Assembly (NCBI RefSeq): GCF_002854065.1
Contig: NZ_CP024147.1
Strand: one strand, 5' to 3'
From: Escherichia coli
Lineage (GTDB): Bacteria; Pseudomonadota; Gammaproteobacteria; Enterobacterales; Enterobacteriaceae
Length of the DNA stretch: 64,000 nucleotides
The translations under genes were made by a program, and so were the position numbers. Under the pieces are notes generated by a model. The model had not been told where the DNA came from and made no database searches. It was given only the letters and a program-made list of their open reading frames with translations. This document shows, one piece after another, positions 27,895 to 61,466 of this stretch; the stretch's first letter is position 1, and the number at the start of each line of letters is the position of its first letter.

Positions 27895-27906
27895 CACGCT
27901 ACCGCC
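27895..27906 (-). promoter_or_regulatory. ops element (RfaH recruitment site) within the JUMPstart sequence of the waaQ leader
   Basis: Reverse complement of 27894..27906 is GGCGGTAGCGTGC, matching the ops consensus GGCGGTAGCGTG; about 50 bp upstream of the waaQ start. Confidence 0.75.
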
Positions 27907-28257
27907 CCAGGCTCAACAGCTACCTGAATACTGATACCGCACTGATATTGACGCGCTAGTGTATCACTTCTTTCGCGGCAATCCGACCCGAATGATTTTT
28001 AAGCACACTGTTGATTTTCAATAAAGAAATCAATCAAATATAATCATTAGCAACCATATTCTTTCACTGTTGCTCTGCGATTTCTTCCTGCACGTACAGC
28101 AGAAATCAATGAATCGCATAAAAATACAAAAAAAGTATAGATGTTCAGCAAGAATTGGCGGGTAAATTGCTATTTAAGTCAAAAACGGGAAAAGTAATGG
28201 TAAAGCCACAGCTAAATACATAGAATCCCCAGCACATCCATAAGTCAGCTATTTACT

Positions 28258-34810: not shown

Positions 34811-34840
34811 TGACGCCGGATGACTTTTCATCCGGCGAGT
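34811..34840. terminator. Hairpin between convergent slmA and pyrE (putative bidirectional terminator)
   Basis: cgccggatga-cttt-tcatccggcg perfect inverted repeat at 34814..34837. Confidence 0.45.
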
Positions 34841-34844
34841 TTCT

Positions 34845-35486
34845 TTAAACGCCGAACTCTTCGCGATAGGCCTTAACCGCCGCCAGATGTTCCGCCATTT
34901 CTGGCTTCTCTTCCAGGTAAGCAATCAAGTCTTTCAGGGTAATGATAGAGATCACCTTGCAGTTGTAATCACGCTCAACTTCCTGAATCGCCGAAATCTC
35001 GCCGCGCCCCCGTTCCTGACGATCAAGCGAAATCAATACGCCAGCAAGCGTCGCGCCATTAGCCTGAATAATCTCCATCGACTCGCGAATCGCCGTTCCG
35101 GCGGTGATCACATCATCTACCAGCATTACGCGTCCTTGTAACGCGCTACCAACCAGATTGCCGCCTTCACCGTGGTCTTTTGCCTCTTTGCGGTTAAAGC
35201 AGTACGGCAGGTCAAGGTCATGATGCTCCGCCAGCGCCACGGCGGTAGTGGTGGCAATCGGGATCCCTTTGTAAGCAGGGCCAAACAGCAGATCGAACTC
35301 AATGCCGGAATCCACCAACGCTTCAGCGTAAAAACGGCCTAACAGTGCCAGATCGCGCCCGGTATTAAACAGCCCGGCGTTGAAGAAATAGGGGCTTTTG
35401 CGCCCGGACTTCAGCGTAAACTCGCCAAACTTTAACACCTGCTTGCTAAGCGCAAATTCAATAAACTGGCGCTGATATGGTTTCAT
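34845..35486 (-). CDS. pyrE: Orotate phosphoribosyltransferase
   Basis: ORF track 34845..35501; start trimmed to [23 protein letters not shown]. Confidence 0.95.
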
Positions 35487-35516
35487 GCCTTCGCTCCTCA
35501 TCTTACTTTTCTACAG

Positions 35517-35546
35517 ACAAAAAAAAGGCGACTCATCAGTCGCCTT
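35517..35546 (-). terminator. pyrE attenuator (intrinsic terminator between rph and pyrE)
   Basis: On the minus strand ggcgacugaugagucgcc hairpin followed by U8; lies between the rph stop (35552) and pyrE start (35486), the classic rph-pyrE attenuation arrangement. Confidence 0.75.
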
Positions 35547-35551
35547 AAAAA

Positions 35552-36268
35552 TCAGTTTGCCAGCGCCGCCTTCTGCGTCGCTACAATGGATTCGATTCCC
35601 CCTCGGGCCAGCGCCAACAAGGTGAGTAACTCTTCATGGGTGAACGGCTCGCCTTCTGCCGTCCCCTGCACTTCAATGATGCGCCCGTCTTCGGTCATCA
35701 CTACGTTCATGTCGGTCTCTGCGGCTGAGTCTTCAACGTATTCCAGATCGCAAATTGCTTCGCCGTTAACAATACCGACAGAAACCGCGGCTACCATCCC
35801 TTTCATTGGATTGGTTTTCAGCTTGCCGTTTTCCACCAGCTTCTGTAACGCATCTGCCAGCGCCACGCAGGCACCCGTAATCGAAGCGGTACGCGTGCCA
35901 CCATCCGCCTGAAGCACGTCGCAGTCCAGCGTAATGGTGAACTCACCCAGCGCTTTCAAATCTACTGCCGCACGAAGAGCACGGGCGATCAGACGCTGGA
36001 TTTCCATTGTGCGTCCACCCTGCTTACCTTTCGCCGCTTCACGAGCGTTACGGGTGTGGGTAGAACGCGGCAGCATACCGTACTCTGCGGTGATCCAGCC
36101 CTGGCCCTGACCTTTCAGGAAGCGCGGCACGCCTTCTTCAATAGAGGCGGTACACAACACTTTGGTATCGCCAAATTCGACCAGCACCGAGCCTTCTGCA
36201 TGTTTTGTATAGTTACGAGTCAGGGTAACGGGACGCACCTGATTATTGCTACGGCCTGCTGGACGCAT
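35552..36268 (-). CDS. rph: Ribonuclease PH, full length
   Basis: ORF track 35552..36292; start trimmed to [26 protein letters not shown]; 238 codons ending ...ATQKAALAN. Confidence 0.95.
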
Positions 36269-36394
36269 ATTGAAATCTCCGGCTTGAAACAAATGTGGCT
36301 GCGCATTATACGGACTTCCGGCGGTTATTCCTATCCTGAGAAGGCATCGATGGCTATAATCCTTCCACCTCTCCTTTTATAAACAGGAACGTCT

Positions 36395-37418: not shown

Positions 37419-37434
37419 CTGTATATAAATACAG
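37419..37434. promoter_or_regulatory. LexA (SOS) box upstream of dinD
   Basis: ctgtatataaatacag = CTGT-N8-ACAG with AT-rich core, about 45 bp upstream of the dinD start. Confidence 0.8.
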
Positions 37435-37479: not shown

Positions 37480-38304
37480 ATGAACGAACATCATCAACCT
37501 TTTGAAGAAATACGGCATTATGGCACTGAAGGGCAAGAATTTTGGTCAGCGAGAGAATTGGCACCGTTACTGGATTATCGGGACTGGCGCAATTTTCAAA
37601 AGGTACTGGCCCGCGCGACTCAAGCGTGCGAAGCCAGCAATCAAGCTGCATCTGACCATTTCGTTGAAACCACCAAAATGGTTGTATTAGGTTCAGGGGC
37701 TCAACGAGAACTTGAAGATGTTCATCTCTCCCGCTATGCCTGTTACCTGGTAGTACAAAACGGCGACCCTGCGAAACCGGTTATTGCGGCAGGGCAAACT
37801 TATTTTGCTATCCAGACCCGACGGCAGGAGCTGGCTGACGATGAAGCTTTCAGGCAACTTCGTGAAGACGAAAAGCGTCTTTTTCTGAGAAATGAATTGA
37901 AAGAACATAACAAACAATTAGTTGAGGCAGCGCAGCAAGCTGGGGTAGCGACAGCTATCGATTTCGCCATATTTCAGAATCATGGTTACCGGGGGCTGTA
38001 TGGTGGATTAGATCAGAAAGCTATTCATCAGCGGAAGGGGCTGAAAAAGAGTCAGAAGATCCTGGATCATATGGGTTCAACAGAACTGGCGGCTAATCTC
38101 TTTCGAGCTACCCAAACAGAAGAAAAACTTAAGCGGGATGGCGTGAATTCAAAACAGCAAGCTAACACCACACACTTTGACGTAGGTCGCAAGGTGAGGC
38201 AAACCATTCAGGAACTTGGCGGAACCATGCCTGAGGAGTTGCCGACCCCGCAGGTCAGCATTAAGCAGTTGGAAAACAGTGTAAAAATTACAGAGAAAAA
38301 ATAG
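37480..38304 (+). CDS. dinD: DNA damage-inducible protein D
   Basis: ORF track 37468..38304; start trimmed to MNEHHQPFEEIRHYG; LexA box upstream. Confidence 0.9.
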   Translation: MNEHHQPFEEIRHYGTEGQEFWSARELAPLLDYRDWRNFQKVLARATQACEASNQAASDHFVETTKMVVLGSGAQRELEDVHLSRYACYLVVQNGDPAKPVIAAGQTYFAIQTRRQELADDEAFRQLREDEKRLFLRNELKEHNKQLVEAAQQAGVATAIDFAIFQNHGYRGLYGGLDQKAIHQRKGLKKSQKILDHMGSTELAANLFRATQTEEKLKRDGVNSKQQANTTHFDVGRKVRQTIQELGGTMPEELPTPQVSIKQLENSVKITEKK

Positions 38305-55933: not shown

Positions 55934-56028
55934 ATCGAGGCGCGGAAGATCGTCGTCTCCGGTGAGGCGGCTGGACTTCAAATCCAGTTGGGGCCGCCAG
56001 CGGTCCCGGGCAGGTTCGACTCCTGTGA
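55934..56028 (+). tRNA. selC: tRNA-Sec (selenocysteine, UCA anticodon)
   Basis: 95-nt sequence ggaagatcgtcgtctccggtgaggcggctggacttcaaatccagttggggccgccagcggtcccgggcaggttcgactcctgtgatcttccgcca; long variable arm, anticodon loop cttcaaa. Confidence 0.97.
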
Positions 56029-56674
56029 TCTTCCGCCAAAATGCCTCTTCTGACGTTCTCCAATCCCTTGTAATACTGTCAATCCAGAGATTTTCTACTG
56101 CTCAATATTCAATCGGCTTCAGGAATACCTGATCAAAGGTTTTGTGATGGACGATGAGCGACTGAAGAATCCGCCTGTCGGTTCTTCTGTCCTCGAACGC
56201 ATCCGCGATATTCGCGCCAGCATGCGCCGTGTTTATTTGCAGGTGATTTGCCCCCCTGCTGACTCTCAGCCAACTGTATCGCCATTAAGGTGAAGATGTT
56301 GTTTTACACGCTTCTGCACACCCTTTTTTATACGACTGTTCTATTCCTTTAACAGCTGGCAAAAAAACTGACCTATAAACTTCACCAATAATCAGACTGC
56401 CATTAAGATTAATTTGTTCATTTAATATATCAAATCAACTTGTTTTATTTTTACTATCAAAAATAGCTCATTGCCTTACTATAATTAATATATAAATTCG
56501 GTGATTAATTCTTAACATGCTTTTGCTAATAATCTCAATTGCTGGCCCTATAATATTGCGCTAGCATTGTTTTCTGGTTGTATCAGCGATACTCAAAAAT
56601 TCTTAATACAATACTCATTCGACTGGTACTTATTTGTAACTCAGTTATATTTTGTCGCCCGGTGATTCAGAAGA

Positions 56675-58896: not shown

Positions 58897-59325
58897 TTAC
58901 CAGCCAGGCACCGCGCCACCGTTAAAGATGGTTTCTGCCGCTTTTGCGACTTCGGGTGATTGATAAGATTGCAGAAATTCCTTCACGTTTTCTGCATTCT
59001 TATTATCTTCCCGTGCCACCAAAATATTCACATACGGCGAATTTTTATCTTCAATAAATACGCTGTCGTGCACCGGAGAAAGCCCGGTCTGCTGAATGTA
59101 AGTGGTGCTGATAATCGCCACATCAACTTTGGGATCATCCAGTACGCGCGGGAGCTGCGCCCCCTCGAGTTCCATAATCTGCAAATGACGAGGATTCTCG
59201 GTTATATCCAGCGCGGTAGGTAGTAACCCTTTTCCCTCTTTCAGAGTAATTAGCTTCTCTTTTTGCAACAGTAAAAGCGCGCGACCAAGGTTGGTCGGAT
59301 CGTTGGGGATCGCCACTGTCGCGCC
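58897..59325 (-). pseudogene. nlpA: Truncated nlpA (lipoprotein-28, methionine-binding family): only the C-terminal half, 5' part replaced by IS1
   Basis: ORF track 58897..59316 (139 aa) matches the recalled NlpA C-terminus (AIPNDPTNLGRALLLLQKEKLITLKEG...GGAVPGW); the frame continues upstream directly into the IS1 terminal repeat; no signal peptide or lipobox present. Confidence 0.85.
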
Positions 59326-59380
59326 GGTGATGCTGCCAACTTACTGATTTAGTGTATGATGGTGTTTTTGAGGTGCTCCA

Positions 59381-59656
59381 GTGGCTTCTGTTTCTATCAG
59401 CTGTCCCTCCTGTTCAGCTACTGACGGGGTGGTGCGTAACGGCAAAAGCACTGCCGGACATCAGCGCTATCTCTGCTCTCACTGCCGTAAAACATGGCAA
59501 CTGCAGTTCACTTACACCGCTTCTCAACCCGGTACGCACCAGAAAATCATTGATATGGCCATGAATGGCGTTGGATGCCGGGCAACCGCCCGCATTATGG
59601 GCGTTGGCCTCAACACGATTTTCCGCCATTTAAAAAACTCAGGCCGCAGTCGGTAA
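59381..59656 (+). CDS. insA: IS1 InsA (DNA-binding inhibitor/transposase N-part)
   Basis: ORF track 59381..59656 (91 aa); [40 protein letters not shown]. Confidence 0.95.
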
Positions 59657-60078
59657 CCTCGCGCATACAGCCGGGCAGTGACGTCATCGTCTGCGCGGAA
59701 ATGGACGAACAGTGGGGATACGTCGGGGCTAAATCGCGCCAGCGCTGGCTGTTTTACGCGTATGACAGGCTCCGGAAGACGGTTGTTGCGCACGTATTCG
59801 GTGAACGCACTATGGCGACGCTGGGGCGTCTTATGAGCCTGCTGTCACCCTTTGACGTGGTGATATGGATGACGGATGGCTGGCCGCTGTATGAATCCCG
59901 CCTGAAGGGAAAGCTGCACGTAATCAGCAAGCGATATACGCAGCGAATTGAGCGGCATAACCTGAATCTGAGGCAGCACCTGGCACGGCTGGGACGGAAG
60001 TCGCTGTCGTTCTCAAAATCGGTGGAGCTGCATGACAAAGTCATCGGGCATTATCTGAACATAAAACACTATCAATAA
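59575..60078 (+). CDS. insB: IS1 InsB frame (expressed as the InsAB' transposase by -1 frameshifting)
   Basis: ORF track 59575..60078 (167 aa) in the -1 frame relative to insA, overlapping its 3' end. Confidence 0.9.
59632..59638 (+). other. IS1 programmed -1 ribosomal frameshift motif (A6C)
   Basis: tttaaaaaac within the insA/insB overlap. Confidence 0.7.
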
Positions 60079-60101
60079 GTTGGAGTCATTACCTAGACGA
60101 C

Positions 60102-61466
60102 TTACTTACCAATACAGAAGCTGGAGAAAATCCGCCCCAGCAGGTCGTCAGAGGTAAATTCCCCGGTGATTTCGCTTAAGTTCTGCTGCGCCAGGCGCAA
60201 CTCTTCCGCCAGTAGTTCGCCTGCCCAGGCACCTAACAGTTGCGCTTTACCTTGCTGCAAATGCTCCGCTGCCTGTTCCAGCGCCTGTAGGTGGCGACGG
60301 CGCGCCAGGAAGCCGCCTTCCATGTTGGTGTCAAAGCCCATGCTCTGTTTGAGATGGTTACGCAGCACGTCCACGCCTTCGCCAGTCCTTGCAGACAGAC
60401 GAATTAACGCGTGACCGTTCACTTCACTTATTCCCAGCGTTTCGCCGGTGATATCGGCTTTATTGCGCACCACGGTGATCGGCAGTTTCGCGGGCAGACG
60501 GGCGATAAATTCCGGCCAGATCTCTGCCGGATCAACGGCGTCTGTCGTGGTGCCATCGACCATAAACAGCACGCGGTCGGCCTGTTCAATTTCCTGCCAC
60601 GCGCGCTCGATCCCAATACGTTCAACTTCGTCACTGGCTTCACGTAGCCCGGCGGTATCGATGATATGCAGCGGCATCCCGTCAATGTGGATATGCTCAC
60701 GCAGCACGTCACGCGTGGTTCCGGCGATATCAGTCACGATTGCTGCTTCACGGCCCGCCAGCGCGTTTAACAGGCTAGATTTACCGGCGTTAGGACGTCC
60801 GGCAATCACCACTTTCATCCCTTCGCGCAACAAACTACCCTGACGTGCTTCGGCACGCACTGCATCAAGATCGGCAATCACGTCATTGAGCTGAGCTTCA
60901 ATTTTGCCGTCGGAGAGGAAATCGATCTCTTCATCAGGGAAATCAATTGCCGCTTCGACGTAAATGCGCAAGTGGGTGAGGGCTTCCACCAGATGGTTGA
61001 CCCGTGCGGAGAATGCGCCTTGCAGCGAGTTAAGTGCCGAACGGGCTGCCTGTTCCGAACTGGCATCGATAAGATCGGCAATCGCCTCGGCCTGGGCTAA
61101 GTCGAGTTTATCGTTAAGAAACGCGCGTTCGGAAAACTCACCCGGGCGAGCAATCCGCAGGCCGGGAATGGTCAGAATGCGTTTTAACAGCAGGTCGAGG
61201 ATCACCGGACCGCCATGACCCTGCAGTTCCAGCACATCTTCGCCGGTGAACGAGTTCGGGCCAGGGAACCATAGCGCAATCCCCTGATCGAGCACGCTGC
61301 CGTCTGCGTCTTTAAATGGCAAATAATCGGCGTAGCGCGGCTTAGGCAGTTTACCCAGCACGGTTTCAGCAACTTCTCGGGCTTTGAGGCCGGAGATGCG
61401 CAGGATGCCCACACCACCGCGTCCCGGTGGGGTTGCCTGGGCGACGATAGTGTCGTTATGGCTCAT
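60102..61466 (-). CDS. mnmE: tRNA modification GTPase MnmE
   Basis: ORF track 60102..61466 (454 aa); G-domain motifs GRPNAGKSS and DTAG; C-terminal ...FCIGK. Confidence 0.96.

Follow-up and report, generated by a model that had tools for sequence, protein, structure and literature searches.

Full-length rph upstream of the pyrE attenuator in an Escherichia coli sequence without the rph-1 frameshift

The pyrE attenuator of Escherichia coli has been described as sensitive to UTP and as dependent on the coupling of ribosome and RNA polymerase (Bonekamp et al. 1984 and Jensen 1993, both cited in PMC2784333 and PMC11148124). The two citing papers state both the attenuation mechanism and the defect that the rph-1 allele causes, and the wild-type rph+ RNase PH corresponds to UniProt P0CG18 (PMC11148124). 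A full-length rph in front of the pyrE attenuator is already known and is textbook material (Jensen 1993; Bonekamp 1984). Here we compare with this system the corresponding locus of the window, by which we mean the whole stretch of 64,000 nucleotides of E. coli contig NZ_CP024147.1 that was analyzed. The locus is almost certainly a bicistronic rph-pyrE operon in its wild-type form, from an E. coli other than K-12, and no feature of the sequence speaks against this reading.

On the minus strand of the window, rph occupies positions 35552..36268 and encodes a full-length RNase PH of 238 sense codons, followed by a TGA stop codon at 35554..35552. The first-pass annotation had given the gene 238 codons ending in ATQKAALAN, and the open reading frame and its translation (...ATQKAALAN, then TGA) bore this out. 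The ATG at 36268, with GGAG ahead of it, yields the 238-aa product, while the longest mechanical reading frame reaches an upstream TTG at 36292 and would comprise 246 aa. The RefSeq annotation of the wastewater isolate CUWW06 (NZ_CP182139.1), which on identical DNA shows a 717-bp 'ribonuclease PH' (WP_001247089.1), supports the start at 36268. The product matched the NCBIfam RNase PH equivalog model TIGR01966 over profile positions 1-235 of 236 with 380.4 bits (cutoff 141.5), and given this score and an E-value of 2.5e-114 the match is beyond chance. Both RNase PH domains were present in the Pfam comparison (PF01138, 107 bits; PF03725, 58 bits), and the protein is accordingly a member of the RNase PH family.

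The window was aligned with positions 3812000-3820000 of MG1655, where rph is annotated as 'truncated RNase PH'. The only indel in rph lies at the site of the 1-bp deletion of rph-1, a run of G on the minus strand (C5 on the plus strand) within the codons for Arg222-Gly223-Gly224 (CGA GGG GGA). The window reads GAGGGGGAATC, with an intact run of five G at 35602..35598, and MG1655 reads GAGGGGAATC, with four. Translation of MG1655 rph gave 228 aa ending in ...ALARGESNPL, and putting one G back into it resulted in 238 aa with the same C-terminus as in the window. Because the window has G5 instead of G4 and 238 instead of 228 aa, and because re-insertion of a single G repairs the MG1655 gene, the window does not carry rph-1: the 1-G deletion, the frameshift and the 228-aa product are all absent from it, and it displays the length of 238 aa, the C-terminus of repaired K-12 and the G5 run at codons 222-224 that characterize the rph+ allele. 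The first-pass annotation had held that K-12 MG1655 has the rph-1 frameshift truncating RNase PH and that an alignment with MG1655 rph would find no such 1-bp deletion in the window; the alignment, once run, agreed with it on both counts.

The premature stop codon of rph-1 strains is present in the window as a TAG on the minus strand at 35581..35583, 29 nt ahead of the TGA and therefore outside the rph frame. In MG1655, where the coding sequence ends ...CCA TTG TAG, the deletion shifts the stop to 30 nt upstream of the true stop. The end of the G run is 43 nt away from the rph stop codon, in agreement with the position, 43 nt before the stop, that is reportedly given by Jensen 1993. A repeat search of the same part of the gene revealed two copies of a 10-nt direct repeat, GCAGAAGGCG, on the minus strand at 35567..35576 and 35650..35659, i.e. 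83 nt apart. In MG1655, the counterpart of this repeat, 10 bp long and with copies 82 bp apart, borders the delta-82 deletion that arises repeatedly in laboratory evolution (PMC2784333).

The segment between the two genes, likewise read on the minus strand, begins with a 7-nt spacer (UUUUUAA, 35545..35551) that separates the rph stop from the core of the attenuator hairpin at 35527..35544 (GGCGACU, loop GAUG, AGUCGCC). The hairpin, which was found by terminator scan and by folding and is the same as in MG1655, is followed by a U8 tract at 35519..35526 as the tail of an intrinsic terminator, seen in the sequence and in the terminator scan, and then by a 32-nt pyrE leader with the Shine-Dalgarno motif GGAG (35487..35518). 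The G+C-rich hairpin, the U-tract and an rph stop codon immediately upstream, which together make up the pyrE attenuator, are thus all in place. The order that had been read at first sight, with the hairpin followed by U8 and then by pyrE (ATG at 35486), proved correct, and the accompanying distance of 7 bp from stop to hairpin holds for the G+C core stem but not for the minimum-energy structure: the two A at the end of the spacer are able to pair with the two leading U of the tract, and both the minimum-energy fold and the terminator scan added these two A-U pairs, which results in a 9-bp stem at 35546..35525 that lies 5 nt from the rph stop. The isolated hairpin folded at -14.7 kcal/mol (z = -5.4), and given that 0 of 200 shuffled sequences were as stable, it is not a product of chance. 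For the 96-nt context the fold gave a z of -1.44, and only the isolated hairpin is clearly non-random. Over the 65 bases that separate the two genes, the window and K-12 MG1655 show 0 differences. At the gathering threshold, Rfam detected only tRNA-Sec and JUMPstart in the whole window, and no family covering the pyrE attenuator; the JUMPstart element (RF01707, 55 bits) lies at 27895..27933 on the minus strand, upstream of the rfaQ-led LPS core operon.

Downstream of the attenuator, pyrE (34845..35486, minus strand) encodes an orotate phosphoribosyltransferase of 213 aa that belongs to the TIGR00336 family (240.6 bits; cutoff 106.8). The operon promoter or promoters are expected upstream of rph, in the divergent rph-yicC intergenic region (36269..36394), a location which rests on the literature. 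This region differs from MG1655 at one position (36340), and a simple sigma-70 consensus scan detected no promoter-like site in it, an outcome that speaks neither for nor against a promoter there. The convergent genes slmA and pyrE are separated by 36 nt, and this gap holds a G+C-rich hairpin of 10 bp (CGCCGGATGA...TCATCCGGCG; 34814..34837) that is identical to that of MG1655 and is likely a bidirectional terminator closing the rph-pyrE operon.

Although a hairpin with U8 is by itself a generic intrinsic terminator, and the terminator scan returned four such sites in 1.8 kb versus 2.1 expected, we judge it very improbable that these elements merely end a monocistronic rph, with a separate promoter driving pyrE and no regulatory role for the place at which rph stops. 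The 32 nt between the U-tract and the pyrE ATG are too short for a separate promoter and a leader, and the promoter scan of the minus strand found no promoter-like site within rph or in the rph-pyrE spacer. Furthermore, K-12 has exactly this segment, and its control by readthrough has been described there (PMC2784333, PMC11148124); the rph-1 phenotype, low pyrE expression resulting from altered rph translation, is incompatible with independent transcription of pyrE (PMC11148124). The bicistronic reading is retained below.

The first-pass annotation had further concluded that the strain is not of the K-12 MG1655 type at rph, which the intact G5 run, 17 substitutions in rph and 220 mismatches over the surrounding 8 kb (97.1% identity) all uphold. 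Together with the indel, the substitutions amount to a divergence of 2.5% from MG1655, and they change the protein at three positions relative to repaired K-12 (V138A, V172I and I216T). Divergence was similar in the neighboring genes: pyrE displayed 16 substitutions, all of them synonymous and leaving the protein identical to that of K-12, and yicC 20 differences. The window is nearly identical to CUWW06, with 6 mismatches and IS-associated differences across its length and 3 mismatches in its first 37,430 bases. Over the 1-kb rph locus, 29 of 5,424 complete genomes were at least 99% identical, and 8 of these were 100% identical; no K-12 strain was among the 29 rows listed at this identity level. 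The 8 fully identical genomes, which are independent of each other, match over 1,001 bases, and all annotate an intact 'ribonuclease PH'.

The rph allele, with A138, I172 and T216 as compared with K-12, is rare, and it might in principle mark a segment acquired by recombination or an RNase PH that differs in function. We give this little credence; the divergence of rph is on par with that of pyrE and yicC, and no sign of a functional difference was observed. Separately, dinD (37480..38304) showed 114 differences from MG1655 (13.8%), of which 95 fall into one 250-bp bin, especially at 37500..37750, compared with approximately 2.5% in its neighbors; this distribution suggests that the 5' part of dinD has been replaced or is recombinant.

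K-12 lines with an intact rph exist (PMC11148124), and 181 genomes combine a K-12-like flank with an inexact match to a 61-mer spanning the rph-1 deletion; yet we find it scarcely conceivable that the window stems from a K-12 lineage with intact rph, whether one that is rph+ like JM83 or one derived from MG1655 by engineering or reversion, given the 17, 16, 20 and 114 differences from MG1655 in rph, pyrE, yicC and dinD, respectively, the 220 mismatches over 8 kb, the near-identity to a wastewater isolate and the 29 of 5,424 genomes with at least 99% identity over the locus, none of the rows listed being K-12. The 2.5% divergence rules out a K-12 strain whose rph+ is ancestral or has been repaired. 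The non-K-12 origin of the locus is therefore maintained.

The frequency of both sequence types was evaluated among 5,426 complete E. coli genomes. An exact match to the 61-mer of MG1655 that spans the rph-1 deletion was found in 168 of them, and among the matches listed, 40 of 40 were K-12 or K-12-sized laboratory strains, including MG1655 sublines, W3110, BW25113, J53 and HMS174. A 71-mer that runs from the stop codon of rph to the start codon of pyrE was present in the band of at least 99% identity in 4,551 of the 5,426 genomes. Based on these two counts, a full-length rph with the pyrE attenuator is the species norm. While homopolymer runs are the commonest indel error of long-read assemblies, there is next to no chance that the G5 run is a length error in sequencing or assembly and the true allele frameshifted, as the 8 independent complete genomes are identical over 1,001 bases including the G run, all with an intact rph annotated, and as G5 is the usual state in the species, with the rph-1 61-mer confined to K-12-type flanks.

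Natural variants of the attenuator occur in other genomes and are small. The spacer of NT1F10 has U6 in place of U5, and 'strain 10' and PEC399 have one C fewer in the hairpin's 3' arm. In the latter (NZ_CM168011.1; 440..1414 of the segment compared), a copy of ISApl1 directly follows the U-tract and parts the attenuator from pyrE.

In the proposed mechanism, transcripts starting upstream of rph would meet the intrinsic terminator (hairpin 35544..35527 and U8) before they reach pyrE. A ribosome engaged on the final codons of rph, or positioned at the UGA (35554..35552), 5-7 nt from the hairpin, would mask the hairpin's 5' arm. At low UTP, RNA polymerase would lag in the U-rich stretch with the ribosome close behind, the hairpin would not form, and transcription would read through into pyrE; when UTP is plentiful, the polymerase would run ahead, the hairpin would form, and transcription would stop. 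A ribosome shields approximately 12-15 nt of mRNA 3' of the codon in its A site. With the UGA at 35554..35552 in the A site, a ribosome in the window strain would thus be predicted to cover the transcript to about 35541, i.e. the AA and the first bases of the 5' arm, and to block the hairpin. In MG1655 and W3110, rph-1 places the stop 30 nt earlier and 36 nt before the hairpin, too far away for the ribosome to interfere, so that termination is high and pyrE is under-expressed: a ribosome stopping at the equivalent of 35583..35581 would leave 36 nt free before the core stem and the terminator unhindered. With the G5 run intact, the pyrE defect of rph-1 would be expected to be absent from the window strain. 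Because the segment from stop to ATG is identical to that of K-12 and the rph stop is at its wild-type place, we infer from the sequence that this strain has wild-type coupling of transcription and translation.

Several other loci in the window differ from K-12 or from CUWW06. Between yicC and dinD, positions 37423..37430 are the empty target site of an ISKox3 insertion (ISL3 family) that is found in CUWW06; these 8 bases are duplicated at the element there, and the element is absent from the window. A 769-bp IS1 copy at 59325..60093 truncates nlpA, leaving a C-terminal reading frame of 139 aa, and abuts the 3' end of mnmE, the nlpA'-IS1-mnmE region further spanning 58897..59316 and 60102..61466. 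Following mnmE are yidC, yidD, rnpA and rpmH, each of them on the minus strand. This arrangement is reversed with respect to K-12, where the genes after nlpA run yicS...dnaA-rpmH-...-mnmE the other way round. The inversion is shared by CUWW06, in which IS1 and mnmE are separated by toxin-gene fragments and an IS2 that are missing from the window. The whole nlpA'-IS1-mnmE junction was found in no complete E. coli genome of the collection (best coverage 83%).

The tRNA-Sec gene selC (Rfam, 83.8 bits) lies at 55944..56034 and is followed at approximately 56117..56278 by a short internal fragment of a rhuM-family gene, named after the CUWW06 annotation, and directly thereafter by setC and yicL; the fragment is likely a remnant of an island once integrated at selC. 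At 18672..19646, rfaC (waaC) is an uninterrupted reading frame of 324 codons that ends before the start of rfaL, and the matching stretch of CUWW06, which lies within the first 37,430 window bases with their at most 3 mismatches, is flagged 'frameshifted' by PGAP. The last ~30 residues encoded by rfaC in the window are presumably unlike those of K-12 WaaC, and the flag probably points to variation in core type where rfaC meets rfaL, and not to a genuine defect.

The intact rph is a strain marker only: it marks the sequence as not coming from an MG1655/W3110-type laboratory strain. From it one would expect pyrE to be expressed normally, growth in minimal medium to be free of partial pyrimidine starvation, and RNase PH to be active. 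The attenuator itself, characterized since the 1980s-1990s, is understood no better for this finding.

Compared with the wild-type rph-pyrE operon of E. coli, the locus has the same order (slmA / pyrE-rph / yicC), the same 238-aa length of RNase PH and an identical segment from stop to ATG; it is unlike it in allele only, by the V138A, V172I and I216T changes of rph and the 16 synonymous changes of pyrE. With the rph-1 allele, reportedly ascribed to K-12 MG1655/W3110 by Jensen 1993, it shares the genomic location, the attenuator and the flanking genes, whereas the G4 run, the 228-aa product with its GESNPL end and the stop 36 nt before the hairpin are rph-1's own, as opposed to G5 and 7 nt in the window. 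The leader attenuator of E. coli pyrBI follows a shared logic, in which an intrinsic terminator in front of a pyrimidine gene is suppressed by a ribosome trailing a polymerase that is short of UTP. The translated frame of pyrBI is, however, a dedicated short leader peptide, while that of rph-pyrE is the 3' end of a full-size and functionally unrelated gene.
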